Shown here one piece after another: positions 6,341 to 39,785 of a stretch of 64,000 nucleotides of DNA (the first letter of the stretch is position 1; the number at the start of each line of letters is the position of its first letter). This DNA is from Candidatus Zhuqueibacterota bacterium (GTDB lineage Bacteria > Zhuqueibacterota > Zhuqueibacteria > Thermofontimicrobiales > Thermofontimicrobiaceae). The DNA is taken from the NCBI GenBank assembly GCA_049322915.1, contig JBMOPW010000014.1:541527-605526 (forward strand). The letters are read 5' to 3'. A program made the translations under genes and the position numbers. The notes beneath the pieces were generated by a model. That model saw nothing but the letters and a program-made list of their open reading frames with translations, ran no database searches and was not told where the DNA came from.

Positions 6341-6619
6341 ATGAAACATAACGAATTCGAAGAAATTAAAAAGGTAAATGACATGTTCAATTTCACCAAT
6401 GAAGAAGAAAATTGGGAAGAGTCTTCCTGGGAAGAGGAAGATTGGAGCGAAGAAGACGACGATGACTGGAGCGAGGAAGACGACGAAGACTGGGAAGATG
6501 AAGAAGAATGGGAAGATGATGAAGAAGAATGGGAAGACGAAGAAGAATGGTCAGACGAAGAAGAAGAATGGGAAGACGAAGAAGAATGGGAAAATGACGA
6601 CCCAATGAATTGGAATTAA
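6341..6619 (+). CDS. Small, extremely acidic Trp-periodic low-complexity protein
   Basis: 92 aa, repeated (E/D)nW units with 11 Trp; GAGG RBS upstream, own terminator downstream. Confidence 0.65.
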   Translation: MKHNEFEEIKKVNDMFNFTNEEENWEESSWEEEDWSEEDDDDWSEEDDEDWEDEEEWEDDEEEWEDEEEWSDEEEEWEDEEEWENDDPMNWN

Positions 6620-6682
6620 ACCAGGTTATCCAGGGTAGTTTGGCATATTGATAATTCAACCTTTTGTAACACATGAAAATTT

Positions 6683-7111: not shown

Positions 7112-10100
7112 ATGGCTAAACTCAAATACTTCCTTTCAATTGGTTTGATCGTGTCATTCGTTTTGCCGGCGTTTCTGCTGTCCCAGACAACGGGTAAGAT
7201 CGATGGCTATGTCAAGGATAAGAAGACAGGCGATCCGCTCCCAGGCGTCAATGTGACGCTGAAAACGACGGCAATTGGAGCGGCTACCGGGGCTGATGGT
7301 TATTACTATATGATCAACGTCCCGGCCGGGGACTATACTGTCACCGCCTCCATGATGGGCTACAAAACCTATTCTGTCCAGAACGTTCAGGTGGTCATTG
7401 ATCAGACAACCCGGGTTGATTTTAGTCTGGACGAGACGGTACTGGATGTCGGTGAGGAAATTGTCGTTACGGCTGAGCGACCGCTCATCGATCCCAGTGT
7501 GACGTCCAAAGTCTCCACCATGTCTTTTGATGAAATTAAAAATATGCCGGCGGAAGATATCAGCCGGGTCCTGGCGCTGCAATCGAACATCACCGTGCTC
7601 ACCAACACCCCGTATGCGAAGAGTGGCTACAACATCAGGGGGATTGAAGACATCCGGATGCGCGGAGGACGAAACAATGAGCTTGGCTTATTCATCGATG
7701 GCATGAAAGTGGGCAATCCTCTCTTCGGCGGATTTGGCACACGGATAAACAACAACGCCGTCAACCAGATGACAGTCGCTGCCGGCGGATTCAGCCCGGA
7801 GTACGGCAATGCGTTATCCGGCGTGATCAACCTGACCACGCGCGAAGGCGGCTCCAAATTATCCGGTCAATTGGAATATGGCACGTCCGTCCCATTTGGC
7901 CTTACTGCCCTGGCGTCTCAACGGCAGGAGGAGCGAAATTATCAGAATGTGCAATTCAGCATGAACGGACCTGTGCCATTCATCCCCAATCTGTCCTTCT
8001 TCTTTTCGACAGACCTGAGTTCGGAAGCAGGTACGCTCTATGAATTCGATGATATTATCTGGGATGACAACAGAGGCGATCTCCCCACATCCGCTGAGCT
8101 ATTCCAGGATTTCATTGAGGATGGTTCCATGGATTTGATCACCAAATCCCAGGTGGAGAGCGTACTTTCGCCAGTCGATGTGGGCGGAAAGCGCCGGTTC
8201 ATCAATCCCATGGATACATGGAAGGGCTGGCACGGCATGGGCTGGGATAATAGTTTCGATTATCTGGGCAAGCTCACCTACCGCATCAGTCCCATGATAA
8301 AACTGTCTCTCAGTTTGTCCCAATCCCAGAGCTACTCCCAGATCAATGACTATCACGCCGGGTATTATTACCATTTGCCCGGAGAGTGGTACAATGTGGA
8401 TGCGAGTCCCGTGGATACCCGAACCAATATTGACCGGCTCCTGGTGAGCGAAACCAGCGGGGAGACGTATTACCTCGAATCTGGATTGCCCTTCCCGGAC
8501 GAGTTCCCCGGCAGCGGCGGCGCGTATCAGGTATGGCACAGAAACGGCTCCGGCATGGCTGCGAGAAACGTCCAGTTTCGCCAGAGCAATCGTCAGGGTC
8601 TTGTCTGGAACCATACGATAAATCCATCCAATTTCTACACCATTCGTATTCAGCGATTCTTCCAGTCGCGGCGCATCCGCGTCATCAACGATTACAATCA
8701 TGTCTATGATGAAATTTTTGGGATGAAGAATATCTTCTCACCGGACTGGGATAACATCAAACAAAAGGATCAGTACAATCATTACAGCACCTACGGCGTC
8801 CTGGATCCCTGGGAAGGTTACTTCCGGGTCCGATACGACAATGTGTATTTTGAGGGAGATTCGAGCATCACGTACGACGTTCGGCTGGACTTCACGTCGC
8901 AGATCAACCGAAATCATCAACTGAAATTTGGCGGACAATTCGTGTATTACGATCTCAGCCGCCACGATGATCAGGGTTCATCCGGCCCATCGGATCATCC
9001 GACGGTGTACCACATGTTCCCCAAAGAGGGCGCGTTGTATTTGATGGATAAAATTGAATACGGCACTGTGGTGTTGAATGCGGGTATGCGCATTGACTAC
9101 GCCAATGCTGAAGGGGAAATGTACGCGGATCCATTGGATCCCATTGGCGAACAGGATATTGAAACGCCGATGATCGAATACAACGATTTTGAACGATCAA
9201 AAAAGAAATTCAAGGTAAGCCCGAGAATTGGCATGGCCTATCCGCTCACTTCCAAATCTGTCGTTCATTTTAATTTCGGGCATTTTTATCAGACGCCCAA
9301 TTATCGGGATTTATACCGCGCAACCGGCCAAGCGCGCGAACTGACCCTCAGAAGCGGCGAACTGATGGGCAACAACAATCTGGAACATGAAAAATCCATT
9401 CAGTACGAAGTCGGTTATCAGCAACAGATCGGCGATATCTACGGGCTTAATTTGACACTGTGGTCCAAGGAGACCACCAACCAGGTTGGCTCGGTGTACG
9501 TGCCGCCCTACTCCGATCCGGGAGGCGAAAATCCATTTGGCTATTACGTCTTTTTGAATAACAATTTTGGATCTGCGCGTGGACTGGATGTGACCCTGCA
9601 GCGGCGTTATCGCGACTTCTTCTCCGGGACGCTGAATTACACCTGGTCACGAGCCCGGGTATTGAAGCAAACTTCCTGGGATGGCTACTGGGATGACGAA
9701 AGTTCCAATACCTTGCCCAAACGGGAATCCATTGCCTCCTGGGATCAGCCTCATTCCGTTCGAATCAACCTCAATTTCAGCATTCCAAAAGACGCCGGCC
9801 CCACTGTGTTCAATCAAAAAGTGCTCTCCAACTTTGGCGTGAGTCTGGTGTACTTCGGAGAAAGTGGACGCGTTTACACGCCATACATGGGCGAAGCCGG
9901 TTATCTGGAAGAGGAGAATTCAGCGCGCTGGCCGTTCTTTCACCAGTTCGATTTGCGCGCCTATAAAAATGTCGAAATCTTCGGCTTGACCTATTCCTTC
10001 TTCGCCCAGGTGCGAAACCTGTTCGATCGGCAGAATGTCATTGATGGGTATTCGCAAACCGGATCGGCGACCGATCCCGGCACTGCCAATGCCGATTATA

Positions 10101-31771: not shown

Positions 31772-31866
31772 GTTCGGGATATTCATCCCGAACCGTGCGC
31801 ACATTCCGGGACATAGGTCCCAGCCATTGCCCGCGCTGGAAGGATGTGAACCATCCGGAAAAATGT
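31772..31866 (+). ncRNA. Candidate structured RNA (unassigned)
   Basis: 9-bp hairpin at 31772-31793, then a four-way-junction-like fold at 31801-31866; lies between two terminators. Confidence 0.3.
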
Positions 31867-31876
31867 AATTAAAACG

Positions 31877-31909
31877 AAACCGGGTCTTGAAAAGAGGCCC
31901 GGTTTTTTT
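31877..31909 (+). terminator. Rho-independent terminator
   Basis: AAACCGGGTCTT-gaa-AAGAGGCCCGGTTT (one bulge) plus T run. Confidence 0.7.
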
Positions 31910-32048
31910 ATGAGATGTCAATATTGTTTTCAAATAATGAGTTGATTCTTGGAAAAATTTTATTAAATTATCAAAATTACACCGAACAGGAATGTCGAAG
32001 GTTTAAATTCCAGTCATCTGCTATAACTATATTCCACAGGAGAATATA

Positions 32049-35000
32049 ATGATTGAAATTGCCGGTTTTATAGGTAAAATATTATCTGAAAAGGCGCTCG
32101 AAAAATTGTTGAACAACATTTTTAATGGCAACAAATCCGCGCTGCAAAAAGCGTATGAAAAGGCGTTTGAAAATACAGTTAATTATTACGAGTATAATTA
32201 CCGCAACAAGTATGGTGCAAAGAATAACCGCTTTTTTAACTACCAGTCCGCGGAAGAAGAACTGATTAAACTCACCTTTGTCCGCCAAAATCCTGACCCG
32301 GACATGCTGGCGCAGATTGAGTGGGAGCATGGTGTAACAACTCCCCCAAAAATTATTTTAGATTTTGTGAACTACCTGCGTTATCAGATGTCCCAATTCA
32401 GGGAATGCGAGGACATTCTCGTGGAAAAGGATAAATATCAATCGTTGATGAATATTGATAAAAATACAGATGGAATTGCCCGAAATATTAAAGAGCTCAC
32501 CAACCATTTTGTAAAAAAAGAACCCGAAGAAGATACCAGGCCGCTCCACTGGAAACACCTTTACAACGCCTTTAAAGACCGGAAGCTGCATGAAGTCTCC
32601 ATAAAACATGTTGGCGGTGGTTTGTTGGGACCGGAAACCCTCCCGCTGGAAGATGTATTTTTTGTGCAGGATGCAGGTTTTCGATGGCTGGGAATTGGAA
32701 TGAAATCTGCCAAAGTGCAGAAGAAAGAAAACAAAAACAGTGAACTGTTCGATGAGCTGACTGTTTGCGAAGGACATGTTTGGCGAGCGCTGCAGGAGCT
32801 GCAAATAAATACAAGCCATATAAGAAAAATTATGGATGGAATCGATAAAGAAAAAATTTTAAAAATTGCCGCCGAGTTTGCAGTAAAATATAATAAACAT
32901 TCAACGGTTTTCGGCAATCAGCATTTTCAGCAAATTGTTGATCAATTGGCCCAACGATTTGAGTTGACTTCTTCTCACATCATTGCCGCGTTGAGTCTTT
33001 ATTTTACAGAAACGATTAAACGCGAGCCAGTCCTTGATTTGCTGAAACCGCCCTGTTCCGCATTTGTTATCGGGGACGCCGGCGTGGGAAAAACAACGGT
33101 GATGCGAAGGCTGGCTCTGAATTTATTCCATCGACTGGAAAACGGCGAAGAAAATGTACCGCTGCCTTTATTTGTCAGGCTTGACAAGATCGAGGATTAT
33201 ATAAAAGAAAAACAGAGCATCCATCAAGGGAAAAAAGCGTTGCTGCAATATATCGCTGACCATTGGAAATCGCATGTCAGTCATGAATCCGACATTTCAG
33301 CGTCTGCCATTGAACAATGCGAATTACCCCTGCAAATAATGCTGGATGGGTTGGATGAAATCCCATCCGCCAATATCCGGGAAAAATTAATCCTCGTCAT
33401 TCGCGATCTTGTTCAGGGACAAACGTGCAATATTATTATCACCTCCAGGCCGACTGCCGTGGATACGGCGTTAATTAAAACTTCTGAATTAAATGAGATT
33501 CGCCTGCTGGAATTAACATCCAAACAAACAAATGAATTTGTGAACAAATTTTTTGAAATATACAATTGTCCGAAATCAGGCAAAGCCGACAGCGCCAAAT
33601 TCAAATCTGCGTTAGAGCTTTCCGACGCGGCCATGCTGTTTGCCGGCAATCCGCTTTACCTGACCGTGATGATTTTAATGCACAAGAAAAATGAGGTGCT
33701 GCCCAAAAAAAGGTTGGAACTGTATGCGGAATTTTACCAGATGTTGCTGTTGCAGCGTTCGACCGGGCAATTCAAAGGCAAACTGGCAGACAGGCCTGCG
33801 CTGCGCATTCAGGATGAAAAAATTATTCACTGGGGCGAGGCCGTTTATACGCCTCTGCTGCAATGGATCGCTTACCTCACCCACAGCAATGACGCAGACA
33901 GCGTTAGCATCGAGAAACAATATGTGATTGACGCGATTAAAAAGGAAGATTTGCAGCAGGAGTTAAAACTGATCAGCCTGGAAAATCTGGCAGAACGATT
34001 CATTAATTTTGCCGATGAAGAGCTGGGATTGCTGGTCTCGCGGGGACAGTTTTACGGATTCAGCCATCGGTCGCTGCAGGAATTTTTAGCGGCCATGCAT
34101 CTGGCTGATTATCAGAAAGAACCATCCATTGAACAGTTTTGGACGGACCAGGCGCTGAAAAAACCGGATCGCTGGATGGAAGTGGCCCGGCTGCTGTTCT
34201 GCAAAATTCTGGATAAAAAATTTTTCGCGACCTGGGTGCGGGATATAAACGATACAAAAGATCCCCGCGTGATCCGGTTAATTCAATCCATTATTTTCGA
34301 TCTGGAAGAGTTCTTTCCCGGGGGCGGCGGCATTCAGTCGCAGAAGGAAAGTGTGCAAAAAGCGCTTGTTTCCCGGCGGGATAAATCCCACGGCTCACCG
34401 GACATGTTCCTCGCCTGCTCCGATGCACTTGGTTCCATGGATGTTCCGCCAATTTCCATTGCCGATCCGCCTGTGGTAAAATTGGTGGCACGGGAGCCGT
34501 TCACCATGGGGATTAATTATTTCGATGATGATACGAAACCTGAATTTAAGGCAACTTTGTCACCCTATTACATGGGGCAATACCCGGTCACCAATAAGGA
34601 ATTTGCCGAATTTATCAACGATGGCGGGTACACCGAGGAAAAATATTGGCGCAGCAGTCATGAAATGTTTACTTTTGATGGAAAAAAAATTTTAGAGGAT
34701 TTAAAAAATAAAACTCCTGAGTATTGGGATGACGAACGATTTGGCAAAAAACGTCCCCTGGTCCCTGTCGTGGGCGTGAGCTGGTACGAGGCCATGGCGT
34801 ATTGTTTATGGTGGAATGAAAAATATGGCGCGGCATGGGCAGAAAGTCATGGTCGTAAAAAAATACTGGTGCGCCTGCCCACCGAAGCGGAATGGGAATT
34901 TGCTGCGCGTGGCTATTCAGGCAGAAAATATGCCTGGGGCGATGAAAATATTGAAACGGACAGGTGTAATTTTTCTTCCTCCAACTTAGACAGAACCTCG

Positions 35001-35300
35001 ACTGTCGGCAGCTATCCCCGGGGCAAAACGCCGGACGTCGATCTGTACGACTTGAGCGGCAATGTCTGGGAATGGTGCATCGATTGGTACAATGAGAAAT
35101 TTTATGCGGAGTGCAAAAGACAGGGTGTCGTGGAAAATCCTGTATGCGCCAGTAAAGGTTCGTACCGCGTGATGCGCGGCGGTAGCTGGGACTTCACTGC
35201 TGACTACTGCCGATCGGCGAATCGTAGCAGGGGCCGTCCTGGAAGGCGTAACAGCCTTGTTGGCTTCCGCCTGGTGTTCGTCCCGCAGTCAGTTGTGTAG
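32049..35300 (+). CDS. DGR target 1: NACHT/STAND NTPase + FGE-sulfatase (C-type lectin fold) domain protein
   Basis: Walker A GDAGVGKTT, Walker B MLDGLDEI, ITSRP, NPLYLT, FSHRSLQEFLAA; FGE motifs VTNKEF, PVVGVSWYEA, RLPTEAEWEFAARG, LYDLSGNVWEWC, RGGSW, GFRL. Confidence 0.92.
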   Translation: MIEIAGFIGKILSEKALEKLLNNIFNGNKSALQKAYEKAFENTVNYYEYNYRNKYGAKNNRFFNYQSAEEELIKLTFVRQNPDPDMLAQIEWEHGVTTPPKIILDFVNYLRYQMSQFRECEDILVEKDKYQSLMNIDKNTDGIARNIKELTNHFVKKEPEEDTRPLHWKHLYNAFKDRKLHEVSIKHVGGGLLGPETLPLEDVFFVQDAGFRWLGIGMKSAKVQKKENKNSELFDELTVCEGHVWRALQELQINTSHIRKIMDGIDKEKILKIAAEFAVKYNKHSTVFGNQHFQQIVDQLAQRFELTSSHIIAALSLYFTETIKREPVLDLLKPPCSAFVIGDAGVGKTTVMRRLALNLFHRLENGEENVPLPLFVRLDKIEDYIKEKQSIHQGKKALLQYIADHWKSHVSHESDISASAIEQCELPLQIMLDGLDEIPSANIREKLILVIRDLVQGQTCNIIITSRPTAVDTALIKTSELNEIRLLELTSKQTNEFVNKFFEIYNCPKSGKADSAKFKSALELSDAAMLFAGNPLYLTVMILMHKKNEVLPKKRLELYAEFYQMLLLQRSTGQFKGKLADRPALRIQDEKIIHWGEAVYTPLLQWIAYLTHSNDADSVSIEKQYVIDAIKKEDLQQELKLISLENLAERFINFADEELGLLVSRGQFYGFSHRSLQEFLAAMHLADYQKEPSIEQFWTDQALKKPDRWMEVARLLFCKILDKKFFATWVRDINDTKDPRVIRLIQSIIFDLEEFFPGGGGIQSQKESVQKALVSRRDKSHGSPDMFLACSDALGSMDVPPISIADPPVVKLVAREPFTMGINYFDDDTKPEFKATLSPYYMGQYPVTNKEFAEFINDGGYTEEKYWRSSHEMFTFDGKKILEDLKNKTPEYWDDERFGKKRPLVPVVGVSWYEAMAYCLWWNEKYGAAWAESHGRKKILVRLPTEAEWEFAARGYSGRKYAWGDENIETDRCNFSSSNLDRTSTVGSYPRGKTPDVDLYDLSGNVWEWCIDWYNEKFYAECKRQGVVENPVCASKGSYRVMRGGSWDFTADYCRSANRSRGRPGRRNSLVGFRLVFVPQSVV
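35156..35288 (+). repeat. DGR variable repeat VR1
   Basis: 133 bp colinear with the TR; 15 mismatches, all at TR adenines. Confidence 0.95.
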
Positions 35301-35401
35301 TTATTCAATTTTCCTGTGAGCAAAACGAGCTGTTTGAACGGAGTGAACGAGGCGGCGAGGGACGAGCCGCCGAGAGAGTGGAGTGAAAACAGCGAGTTGG
35401 G
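35289..35401 (+). repeat. Post-VR conserved element (IMH/hairpin region), copy 1
   Basis: 113 bp, 4 mismatches to 38019-38131; not present after the TR. Confidence 0.85.
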
Positions 35402-35456
35402 GGGGATGTATAAAATTAGTGAAAATACATTATAAATAGGCTGATTAGATTGAAAC

Positions 35457-35543
35457 CTGTCATTGCGAGGAACGTTTTTTGTGACGAAGCAATCCCCTTG
35501 GGCACAGTAGATTGCTTCGACAAAAACCGTCTCGCAATGACAG
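35457..35543. repeat. 87-bp palindromic element (GTCATTGCGAG...CTCGCAATGAC type)
   Basis: CTGTCATTGCGAG/CTCGCAATGACAG outer arms and CGAAGCAATC/GATTGCTTCG inner arms. Confidence 0.8.
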
Positions 35544-35599
35544 TATCCTAGAAAGATTTAGATGTACTATGCCAATATATTGAAATGGGCATCAATCGC

Positions 35600-35732
35600 A
35601 GGTTCGAACCGCGTGATGCGCGGCGGTAGCTGGAACAACACTGCTGACAACTGCCGATCAGCGAATCGTAACAGGAACAATCCTGAAAGGCGTAACAACA
35701 ATGTTGGCTTCCGCCTGGTGTTCGTCCCGCAG
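35600..35732 (+). repeat. DGR template repeat TR
   Basis: 34 adenines, 11 AAY codons in the target frame; all 99 non-A positions are identical in VR1 and VR2. Confidence 0.95.
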
Positions 35733-35862
35733 CTCACAGGAAAGTTGGATGACTACCTCTGAACAGATTGCTGTCCCACTCGCTGAAAGGCGATAAATAA
35801 CGAAACAGAATACACAGCGCTGGTAGGGCAAATGGATGTTTGTTTCGAAGGCGCTGTGTGTT
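35733..35862 (+). ncRNA. Putative structured spacer of the DGR template RNA
   Basis: Hairpins TCGC-tgaaag-GCGA and AATACACAGCGC(35809-35820)/GCGCTGTGTGTT(35851-35862) enclosing TGGTAG...CGAAG. Confidence 0.55.
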
Positions 35863-35900
35863 TGATAATTGGATTGTTTTCAAGAGGAAAGGTTATACAA

Positions 35901-38030
35901 ATGGTTGAGATTTTTAAGCCCATTATTGATCTGTTAACAAACCCTTTATCTCATTTATTTAAAACTCTCGGATTCGGTGACAAGGCGGCAAATGCCTTTG
36001 CAGCGGTTTTGCTTGCATTAATTTTCTATCTTATCATTATCTTATTGAAAGATCAATTTCGAAGGTTTAAAAATAGGCGCAGCGCCAGAGATTTAAAACC
36101 CGAATTTGATTATAAGACAATTAAAGGCTTTCGTGAAATTTTTATTCCCTCAAGATATGATCGGATTTCTCCCAATAGGTATGATAATCCCCATGAGGCG
36201 CATAAGCATAGTGAACCCCGTAAGCTTATTCCATTTATGTTAAAAAAGTCATTTAACGAACGGGTTGAAAATGAAAAGTTTTATTTAATTCTTGGAGACT
36301 CCGGGATGGGGAAGACCGCATTTATGGTCAATTTGTATATAAAATTTCATTCAGTTTTCAGATTCAACCGGAATCATAAAATGAAATTATTTCGTTTCCA
36401 GCCGCCGGATATAGATGATCCCGAAGACGTAATTGAGAGAATAAAAAAGATAGATCGCGAGGAAGCAAAAAATACAATTTTATTATTAGATGGATTAGAC
36501 GAAGACCCTTATATTTTATCCAAAGATCCGAAAGTCACCGATGACGCTGCTTTTGAGAAGAGATTAAATAATATCGCCAGCAGCACTAAAAATTTTTGTG
36601 ATGTTGTTATCACCTGCCGTACACAATATTTTCCACAGGAAGAGTTGCAGGATTATGTCCTTAGTATTCGAAAACCTGATGGCGGATTTTTTAAATTAAA
36701 TAAATATTACTTGTTTCCCTTTTCTGATAAAGAAGTTAAAAAGTATTTAAGAAAAAAATATGGAGTGCTCAGATTTTGGAACCGGCCAAAAAAGAAAAAA
36801 GCGAAATTGTTAGTTGAGAATTCTCATAAATTAATGTCCAGACCGATGTTGCTCTCGTATCTGGATGATTTAGTTGTTGAGGAGGATGTTAAATATAGAA
36901 ATTGTTATCAAATTTATGAAACGCTGATTGAAAAGTGGATTGACCGGGAAAGTAAAAAATGTAAAAAACCAAATGAACAGGAGAAATTTAAAAAAAATTT
37001 AAGAAAGCTGGCGCACGAAACTGCGCTGGATATGTACGCGAAATGGCAATCCGAGGGTGTGTTGTTTCTTAAAAAAGAGGATACCGATAACCTGGCAAAT
37101 AAGTATAATATTGAATTAAAACCTGAAGAGGTTAAAGGCAAGTCCTTGCTCACCTGCGATCCGTTGCGAAACTGGAAATTCGCCCATAAATCCATTCTTG
37201 AATATTTTCTGGCAATAGAATGTTTTAATAAATTGGAGTTTGCAGTAAACTTCAATTTCACCGGTATGGACATGGTGAAACATTTTTATGAAGAGATGCA
37301 GCCCTTTATTAATGCAACCGATTTTGTCAAAGTGGAATTTGGTGTTTTTAAAATGGGTGATGAGTATGGCGATCTAGGCTCTAGTGAAAAACCGGTGCAT
37401 GATGTAAAAATTTCCGATTTTTATATGAGTAAAACTTTAGTGACGCAAAAATTCTAGAACGATATTATGGGAAGCAATCCATCACATTTTAAGAATGGAG
37501 GAGAATACCCGGTTGAACAAGTGAACTGGGATGATGTTCAGGAATTTATTGAAAAGTTACACCAAAAAACAGGCATGAAGTTTCGTTTGCCCACAGAGGC
37601 TGAATGGGAATATGCAGCCCGCGGCGGCCACAAAGCCCCGGTAAAAGATGGCGTGCATGTTGGGAAATTCAGGTATGCCGGCAGCGATAACCTGGATGAA
37701 GTGGGTTGGTATGAAGGAAATTCAGATAAAAAAACTCACCCGGTTGCCGGTAAAAAACCGAATGAACTGGGGCTGTACGACATGAGCGGCAATGTGTGGG
37801 AGTGGTGTCTGGACTGGTATGATGAAAAATATTATAAAGAATGTCAGAAACAGGGTGTTGTGGAAAATCCTGAGTGCACCAGGGAAGGTTCGTACCGCGT
37901 GATGCGCGGCGGTAGCTGGAACAACACTGCTGACTACTGCCGATCAGCGTATCGTCGCGGGGGCAATCCTGTTAGGCGTTTCGACTTTGTTGGCTTCCGC
38001 CTGGTGTTCGTCCCGCAGTCAGTTGTGTAG
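35901..38030 (+). pseudogene. DGR target 2: TM + NACHT NTPase + FGE/CLec protein interrupted by an in-frame TAG at 37455-37457
   Basis: ORFs 35832-37457 and 37467-38030 share a frame; VTQKF*NDIMGSNPSHF spans the stop. GDSGMGKT, LLLDGLDE, FAHKSILEYF; FGE motifs downstream. Confidence 0.8.
37886..38018 (+). repeat. DGR variable repeat VR2
   Basis: 133 bp colinear with the TR; 15 mismatches, all at TR adenines. Confidence 0.95.
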
Positions 38031-38131
38031 TTATTCAATTTTCCTGTGAGCAAAACGAGCTGTTTGAACGGAGTGAACGAGGCGGCGAGGGACGAGCCGC
38101 TGAGAGAATGGAGAGAGAACAGCGAGTTGGG
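38019..38131 (+). repeat. Post-VR conserved element, copy 2
   Basis: Near-identical to 35289-35401. Confidence 0.85.
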
Positions 38132-38203: not shown

Positions 38204-38857
38204 AGCCCCAACGGGGCGAGATACTTTAGCTCAGGGCAACGCCCTGAGTAGATGGTAATTAACACGAACAAATCACCACAACACCCATCAACAAACCGAG
38301 GGTGCCATCACCCAAACAGGAGAGAAAGGAGGAATGATGCCACAAAGCCTGTCCAAAGTATACATTCATTTAGTGTTCAGCACAAAAAATCAAAAAGAAA
38401 TTATCGATCCTGACATTGAAAAAGAGTTGTATCCCTACATGGCGGCGCTATTTCGTGAAAGCGATTCACCGGCGATTATTATAAATGGTGTATCGAATCA
38501 TGTGCATAATTTATTTTTACTCTCCCGGAAATTTGCAATCAGCCAGGTTGTTGAAAACGTAAAAAAGAAATCATCAAAATGGATAAAAACAAAGGGTGAG
38601 CGGTATAAATCATTCTATTGGCAAAACGGATACGGGACTTTTTCAATCAGTCGCACGCATGTTGATGTGGTGAAAAAATATATTTTAAACCAGAAATCGC
38701 ATCATGCACAGACCTCGTTTCAGGGCGAATACCGGAAACTCCTTAATAAATACAATATCGAATATGATGAGCGATATGTTTGGGATTAGGGCGTTTATTG
38801 AGTTCCGTGGTCATCAGGGCGTTGCCCCGGGTTGGGATAAGTCGCTCCGTTGGAGCT
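38204..38857 (+). mobile_element. IS200/IS605-like (Y1) element flanked by inverted REP-like double hairpins
   Basis: AGCCCCAACGGGGCG...CAGGGCAACGCCCTGA (38204-38247) and its inverted counterpart TCAGGGCGTTGCCC...CGCTCCGTTGGAGCT (38814-38857) flank tnpA. Confidence 0.75.
38334..38789 (+). CDS. tnpA: IS200/IS605-family Y1 (HUH) transposase
   Basis: YIHLVFSTK, NHVH (HUH), KKKSSKWI, WQNGYGTFSIS, YILNQKSHH. Confidence 0.9.
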   Translation: MMPQSLSKVYIHLVFSTKNQKEIIDPDIEKELYPYMAALFRESDSPAIIINGVSNHVHNLFLLSRKFAISQVVENVKKKSSKWIKTKGERYKSFYWQNGYGTFSISRTHVDVVKKYILNQKSHHAQTSFQGEYRKLLNKYNIEYDERYVWD

Positions 38858-39618: not shown

Positions 39619-39785
39619 TAGCCTGCATTATTCATAGTATTTTTAAAGGAGGCTGGCTAACCTGAATGGTGCTCTTTTTAGAATAAACGTATAAAAACTG
39701 AGTTTCAAAATAGCTTAGCCTTTAGCTAATTGAAAATCTAAATGTTGACTCAAATTCTGAGCAAGTTCATGAATAATTCAGGTTA
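39619..39785. mobile_element. MITE-like element, copy 2 (inverted relative to 1958-2117)
   Basis: Ends TAGCCTGCATTATTCAT / ATGAATAATTCAGGTTA, internal TAACCTGAATGGTGC at 39658. Confidence 0.7.

Follow-up and report, generated by a model that had tools for sequence, protein, structure and literature searches.

A Template Repeat and Two Target Genes at the Locus

The window, i.e., the whole 64,000-nucleotide stretch of DNA that was analyzed, lies on contig C14 of a genome (G000) that is 96% complete and comprises 45 contigs. Within it, a 132-nt repeat was found in three copies. The middle copy is AAY-rich, lies outside any long open reading frame (ORF) and is the template repeat (TR) of a DGR; the outer copies, VR1 and VR2, form the in-frame 3′ ends of the genes at 32049-35300 and 35901-38030.

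32049..35300, + strand: target 1, an intact 1083-aa NACHT NTPase with a C-terminal FGE-sulfatase/C-type-lectin domain (ORF and Pfam)
35157..35288, + strand: VR1, with 15 differences from the TR, all at A, and 0 of 99 non-A sites changed
35601..35732, + strand: TR, AAY-rich, with A-only differences from both VRs
35901..38030, + strand: target 2, a STAND-like NTPase with a C-terminal FGE/CLec domain (PF03781), broken by an in-frame TAG
37887..38018, + strand: VR2, also with 15 differences from the TR, all at A, and 0 of 99 non-A sites changed

The TR has 33 A among its 132 sites, and the chance of 15 differences all falling on A is 5e-11. Among the unitigs of run X1 that were listed, the sequences at VR1, TR and VR2 were identical to the assembly, bearing in mind that contigs drop rare variants. 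The locus is a real bacterial DGR cassette, in which the template and two target genes have been kept and the reverse transcriptase (RT) and helper gene are missing.

A preliminary description of this DNA had suggested a search for other TR and VR copies in the genome. No further targets of the window TR were found, every other match having at least 36 non-A differences. The same figure applies to the CLec genes on contigs C45 (at 75755 and 78736), C7 (210324) and C18 (7840), which encode large CLec-ending proteins with no template nearby.

In target 1, PF05729 matched aa 339-503 and PF03781 aa 817-1076. Its stop codon (35300) is separated from the TR by 300 bp. The likely start of target 2, with the N-termini of orthologues as a guide, is the ATG at 35901, 169 bp 3′ of the TR; both distances agree with the approximately 300 and 170 bp given in the preliminary description. 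Target 2 is interrupted upstream of VR2 by an in-frame TAG (37455-37457), which is also present in the X1 unitig and falls in a column that is occupied by Trp in four related proteins. As TAG terminates 458 of the 2448 long ORFs of the genome, recoding was ruled out and the codon is regarded as a true stop.

Predicted RNA Elements and Their Pairing with Target DNA

By computational prediction, the spacer, 5′ arm and IMH/hairpin elements of a DGR are all present in the window.

35289..35321, + strand: target signal of IMH type 3′ of VR1; forms an inverted repeat with the first ~31 nt of the spacer
35587..35597, + strand: 5′ arm of the DGR RNA (11 nt), predicted to pair with spacer positions 35766-35776 (10 of 11 pairs)
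35732..35762, + strand: 5′ part of the spacer, target-complementary (alignment, co-variation)
35733..35863, + strand: spacer RNA (fold, alignment)
35766..35776, + strand: spacer partner of the 5′ arm, followed by a short hairpin
35808..35863, + strand: long terminal hairpin of the spacer (fold), the same in relatives
38019..38131, + strand: IMH-like signal and hairpin block after VR2, identical to the post-VR1 block at 109 of 113 positions

The spacer had been described as apparently intact. It does align with those of 33 relatives and has the same terminal hairpin; its fold has a z-score of -2.2, and 13 of 27 consensus pairs in the alignment of 34 spacers showed change on both sides. When the pairing between 5′ arm and spacer was scored at 36 loci, taking the best of 12 offsets, 33 of them had 10-11 of 11 positions paired, and changes in one arm were accompanied by changes in the other. 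A candidate fold-back primer duplex at the 3′ end of the TR comprised only 5-7 of 9 pairs, and its register is ambiguous.

The first ~31 nt of the spacer are complementary, in inverted orientation, to the DNA after VR2 (38019-38051), as they are to that after VR1. Across 23 loci, the co-variation between spacer and post-VR DNA gave a self score of 39.4, higher than all 10,000 permutations (33.4 ± 0.8), with the distal spacer, used as a control, slightly high as well (347 of 10,000). Full-length spacer/target pairing was seen in 18 of the 23 loci, where 517 of the 574 positions in the alignment pair exactly; among the 57 mismatches, 49 were wobble-compatible (G-T or U-G), as against one reverse transition. 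As judged by sequence comparison, this co-variation supports the hypothesis that the primer pairs with the IMH during homing (PMC5703328). It provides comparative support, in an Avd-free class, for a published but unproven pairing between primer and post-VR DNA.

These elements resemble those of the BPP-1 DGR RNA, in which an upstream arm pairs with the spacer in the "cPRT Stop" duplex (10.1101/2023.10.23.563531), a primer segment of the spacer is complementary to the IMH DNA after the VR, and a hairpin follows the VR (PMC5703328). The window differs from BPP-1 in that Avd and RT are absent and the complementarity, of about 31 nt, extends past the stop codon of the target.

Relatives of the Same Spacer Class Carry HRDC and RT Genes

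A DNA search of 167 genomes of the phylum gave some match in 36 and covered both TR and spacer in 12, G000 included. The TR-spacer of the window shared 73-83% nt identity with those of relatives that carry HRDC and RT genes. In five of the 12 (G122, G118, G075, G051, G151), an HRDC gene (PF00570) overlaps the start of an RT gene encoding ~330 aa. The pair ends directly upstream of the TR in four of the five genomes, G151 being the exception, with the pair 3′ of the target. The gene order is target-HRDC-RT-TR-target in G122; in G118, HRDC-RT-TR precedes an orthologue of target 2 (66%), and a contig of G135 ends in an orthologue of target 1 (73% nt) with HRDC and RT behind it. From these three orders, the ancestral arrangement was most likely target 1 - HRDC - RT - TR - spacer - target 2.

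Pattern scans recovered the spacer motif, among the matches listed, in at least 13 of 119 contig loci, six of them new, with the rest mostly chance matches. The set of spacer-class loci comprised 45 rows, two of them duplicates, and thus 43 distinct loci among the matches listed. A full RT without a stop was present in 17 of these, a broken RT in two, and a TR with the RT absent or reduced to a stub in 12; the spacer was fused to the end of a target in five, and seven were cut too short to judge. At the metagenome loci within this set, the RT was searched for within 0.7-4 kb. HRDC was adjacent in 15 of the 17 RT-bearing loci listed, the other two being cut by contig ends. With the Avd of contig C16 as the single query, Avd was not found at any of the 43 listed loci. 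The preliminary description had termed the cassette Avd-less. Avd is indeed absent, but this is normal for the class, so that loss of Avd was rejected as an explanation, and the missing helper is HRDC, which adjoins the RT in relatives and normally stands with it upstream of the TR.

In a quick tree, in which C16 is a long row and groups were labeled from the neighboring gene or spacer and not from the tree itself, all 18 class-linked RTs (the 17 above and that of G135) fell on one side of a branch of length 2.93 (SH-aLRT 100), with C16 and 11 further Avd-linked RTs on the other. The cognate RT, at an identity of at least 62%, was present in six of the 167 phylum genomes, and G000 was not among them. 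The window TR-spacer thus belongs to a class that travels with HRDC-clade RTs, with the HRDC gene itself absent in the window. The spacer pattern gave no match in 2.9 million viral contigs, so no phage donor of the class was seen.

RT Loss Recurs within the Class

The RT was lost with the TR kept in seven of the 12 genomes (G000, G147, G092, G093, G148, G155, G162), and a full cognate RT was found elsewhere in none of these seven. Counting all informative loci among the matches listed, the RT was lost in 12 of 31. Several of these retain visible traces, in the form of HRDC/RT fusions (L042, L047), a stub of HRDC (L088) or the last RT codons (L196, L203), and the ends of the loss differ from those in the window. 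RT loss with the template kept is an ordinary, already described form of decay. RT-anchored DGR surveys will miss many loci of the window's class, as in the seven of 12 genomes here.

Decay after loss fits the pattern of mismatches. No non-A mismatches were present at eight of 12 RT-bearing loci vs. two of 10 RT-less or RT-broken loci (Mann-Whitney p = 0.017, with kin not independent). This comparison used the best VR per locus, left out L189, which has a decayed TR, and VR-less loci, and counted L206 as RT-bearing by virtue of a partial RT. The window would then be among the most recent cases.

Several loci show other arrangements. In L171, L184 (the same as L190), L188, L194 and L202, the spacer directly follows the end of a target gene; several of these fused spacers are near-identical to those of the RT-deleted loci L196 and L203. 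Such fusions would be expected if recombination between VR and TR had removed HRDC, RT and TR. Permuted orders, i.e., TR-target-HRDC-RT and TR-spacer-HRDC-RT, occur in L043 (G151), L042 (G148) and L186, L042 being an internally deleted sister of L043. The RNA module can therefore stand upstream of the enzyme and, as the downstream RT in L043 and L186 indicates, transcription of the TR as part of the RT operon is not required.

A module of TR, spacer and target 2 (64-69% protein identity) is shared by the window (35587-38030), L039, L040, L044 and L197, and often stands directly behind a REP-like palindrome. Among the matches listed, four of its five known copies (the window, L040, L044, L197) have no RT and one (L039) has it, making RT absence commoner in this module than in other cassettes. 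It is conceivable, if quite unlikely, that the arm-TR-spacer module and the downstream target form a self-contained non-autonomous unit that spreads between REP-like sites and is still edited by an outside RT. The supplier would be either an RT-Avd pair of a different clade, such as that on C16, or a transient HRDC-RT, and the choice of target would rest on the ~31-nt RNA guide of the spacer.

The Genome Encodes a DGR RT of a Different Clade

Contig C14 gave no PF00078 or PF22296 match and no tblastn match with the cognate RT, HRDC or Avd, which bears out the preliminary description in that no RT or Avd lies near the cassette. On all 45 contigs, tblastn found no fragment of the cognate RT or HRDC. 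Matches to PF00078 were confined to contigs C34 and C16, and matches to PF22296 to C16 plus a sub-cutoff one on C20. The genome-wide search for a DGR RT and avd, which the preliminary description had put forward, thus turned up a complete Avd-type DGR of another clade on C16, in the order target, avd, TR, RT. This cassette (L005, 5606-10856) has 13 TR/VR differences in its core, all at A, and contains the only DGR RT of the genome. Its long target gene is interrupted by an in-frame TAG (6638-6640) and by a gap in the assembly (7871-7970). Kinase/FHA genes lie on one side of the C16 DGR and an Hsp70-like gene on the other. The RT on C34 was ruled out as a donor, having 27% identity to the cognate RT, 988 aa and a long C-terminal extension. 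It lies on the minus strand at around 428800-431800 (L006), in what appears from a reading of the translations to be a CRISPR-like cluster with cas-like neighbors.

Given a complete RT and Avd in the same genome, we considered the proposal of the preliminary description that the cassette is a non-autonomous satellite served in trans, i.e., that its template RNA is transcribed alone and borrows the Avd-type RT of C16. The RNA elements of the window are all intact, and avd, TR and brt are able to work from a plasmid in trans (PMC5758913). However, the C16 RT has only 38-41% identity to the cognate RT clade and falls outside it, and comparison of the two spacers, as the preliminary description had envisaged, gave no blastn match. 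The C16 TR matches that of the window at 73% over 92 nt. As this TR is unlike that of the window, the spacers are unmatched and the VRs fit the local TR only, the window targets are not remote targets of C16. In BPP-1, the spacer RNA envelops RT-Avd and makes many essential contacts with it (10.1101/2023.10.23.563531), and RT use across classes therefore seems unlikely.

The distribution of other DGR-like RTs bears on the same proposal. They are present in five of the seven RT-less genomes, yet also in four of the six RT-bearing ones, so there is no enrichment. Nor did preservation of TR and VR in RT-less relatives depend on an Avd-type RT. Despite having one, G092 has 3, 4 and 14 non-A mismatches and in G155 the VR of the target is cut off, whereas G147 (eight contigs) has no non-A mismatches and its only RTs found were, on a reading of the ORFs, retron-like and group II intron-like. 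The perfect TR/VR match in G147, with no DGR RT found, means that such a match is no proof of service in trans, with the caveat that this key control is only 91% complete. A weak scan found no sigma-70-like promoter in 35280-35920, where 1.0 was expected. Service of the cassette by the C16 RT is, in our view, highly unlikely. Were such cross-class service to be demonstrated, RT-RNA specificity as now expected would no longer hold, which would be of consequence for the engineering of DGRs; the present evidence speaks against it.

A Deletion Likely Removed HRDC and RT between VR1 and the TR

The interval between VR1 and the TR contains the following features.

35351..35371, + strand: GC-rich DNA hairpin with a 6-bp stem (DNA fold), inside a conserved post-VR block of ~110 nt
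35403..35456, no strand: AT-rich stretch, the most likely site of the deletion junction (from the gene order of RT-bearing relatives; breakpoint approximate)
35457..35544, no strand: REP/MITE-like palindrome of 88 nt (blastn; hairpin of -44.6 kcal/mol)

The ~110-nt post-VR block was matched in L038, L046, L047, L049, L088, L204 and other loci. By tblastn, blastn and three-frame translation, no remnants of RT or HRDC were found between VR1 and the TR, and the proposed deletion is thus inferred from relatives only. Judging from their gene order, HRDC and RT (about 1.4-1.6 kb) most likely stood at 35403-35456 before the deletion. The palindrome has six more family copies in the genome by blastn. 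In the RT-bearing locus L204, the same palindrome family occurs before HRDC and again between RT and TR, where its distance to the TR nearly equals that in the window. Recombination between palindrome copies placed as in L204 would yield the layout of the window and is possibly how the deletion arose, a lead provided by this one relative.

We consider it likely that the locus is a relic, i.e., an HRDC-type DGR that lost HRDC and RT in a recent deletion and is now degenerate. Recent deletion of the RT had been the other option of the preliminary description, and the gene order of the relatives, the recurrence of RT loss, the nonsense codon in target 2, the agreement of the X1 unitigs with the assembly at VR1, TR and VR2, and the published cases of MITE-like DNA in place of the RT speak for it. 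In the proposed sequence of events, the RNA of the ancestor, reading 5′ arm, TR and spacer, would have primed adenine-mutagenic cDNA and have been directed to the two VRs by base pairing between the 5′ part of the spacer and the DNA that follows each VR. The enzyme would then have been deleted with ~1.5 kb of DNA lying between the post-VR1 block and the palindrome; REP/MITE-like palindromes, which flank HRDC-RT in one relative, may have been the sites of recombination. What remains would be an RNA module and two NACHT/STAND-lectin targets, whose variable tips are probably frozen now. That the TR is still there is probably due to nothing more than its position, 170 bp upstream of target 2, and the short time since the loss.

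An assembly gap or mis-join that removed the RT is extremely unlikely. The palindrome at 35457-35544 is multi-copy and does break unitigs, and the target of the C16 DGR has an N gap. There is, however, no N in the window, and a single X1 unitig covers 35703-37914, from spacer to target 2, with no differences and a depth of 48-78 across non-repeat bins. The gap suspected in the preliminary description is thereby excluded on the downstream side, with the qualification that X1 may be the source sample, so that the unitig is not independent evidence. Run X2 yielded short low-depth pieces only and was left out. Moreover, many independent assemblies show the same loss, with stubs left behind.

Other evidence sits less easily with a relic. 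The TR and VRs match perfectly at the 99 non-A sites and the RNA elements are intact, as in an active template, and an assembly that reaches 96% completeness in 45 contigs may have missed a cognate RT. The complete RT and Avd on C16 and the lack of an RT in four of the five TR-spacer-target 2 modules also weigh against a relic. The cassette could still diversify if a sub-population kept HRDC-RT at this site, or if an unassembled contig or mobile element encoded an HRDC-clade RT. No listed X1 unitig spans 35287-35618 as one piece; near-identical spacers occur in differing architectures in the metagenome loci L184, L188, L196, L202 and L203; and Thiohalocapsa has intact variants side by side with deleted ones (PMC10907252). 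Against a hidden enzyme of this kind stand the lack of any cognate RT or HRDC fragment on the 45 contigs, its absence elsewhere in all seven RT-less genomes, the blank result in viral contigs, and a target 2 that is already broken. We regard it as unlikely.

Comparison with Known DGR Systems

Degenerate DGR loci with NACHT-CLec targets and MITE-like arrays replacing the RT were described by Dore et al. (2024; PMC10907252). Strains with an intact RT coexist, and the authors suggest activity in trans solely for loci whose VRs fit the TR of a complete locus. The likeness of the window to Thiohalocapsa PB-PSB1 is close: the DGR is chromosomal, the targets are NACHT/STAND-CLec proteins, the machinery is missing, a MITE-like hairpin stands at the RT site, and other DGR classes are present in the same genome (PMC10907252). 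Thiohalocapsa differs in having one complete locus per class, with the VRs of DGR 4 and 5 matching the TR of the complete DGR 2, whereas the assembly of G000 has no complete locus of the window's class and the VRs match the local TR only.

HRDC DGRs make up architecture C in the survey of Wu et al. (2018), with 14 of 372, and the same survey defines remote targets (PMC5758913). Relatives of the window resemble architecture C in that HRDC overlaps the start of the RT, the targets are FGE/CLec proteins and there is no Avd. The window shares with remote targets an A-specific VR and no RT nearby; remote targets, however, match a TR beside a distant RT (PMC5758913), in contrast to the local match seen here. 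In Treponema denticola, core components were lost and targets left over, HRDC lies between TR and RT, and the core-less isolates have neither RT nor TR (PMC4891356). In the window's class, the TR is usually 3′ of the RT and is often kept, the window itself lacking HRDC and RT. Within the literature compared, non-autonomous TR-bearing DGR satellites are undescribed beyond PMC10907252, whose Figures S1, S3 and S4 may hold more.

A degenerate DGR is one in which TR and VR are present and the RT or accessory gene is missing or has a MITE-like replacement, and this is the condition found in the window. The locus works like an HRDC-type DGR and descends from one, but it does not qualify as complete and is placed among the degenerate loci. 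As a relic, it would add one case to a described pattern of fast turnover and frequent enzyme loss among the DGRs that diversify NLR-like sensors of bacteria.

The Surrounding DNA

In the same-genus genome G124, the window flanks at 31853-31971 and 38205-38300 lie only about 76 bp apart. As the flanks nearly adjoin and the 6.2-kb block between them is absent there, the block is an island. An IS200-family (Y1) transposase gene at 38334-38789 lies within 38204-38857, with 44-nt inverted repeats on either side, and is also present at the empty site of G124. Elsewhere in the window, an acidic low-complexity tandem repeat, GAA/GAC-rich, occupies 6451-6609, and a 47-nt inverted pair lies at 2071-2117 and 39626-39672, 37.5 kb apart. 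The arm at 39626-39672 is a member of a repeat with many copies in G124.
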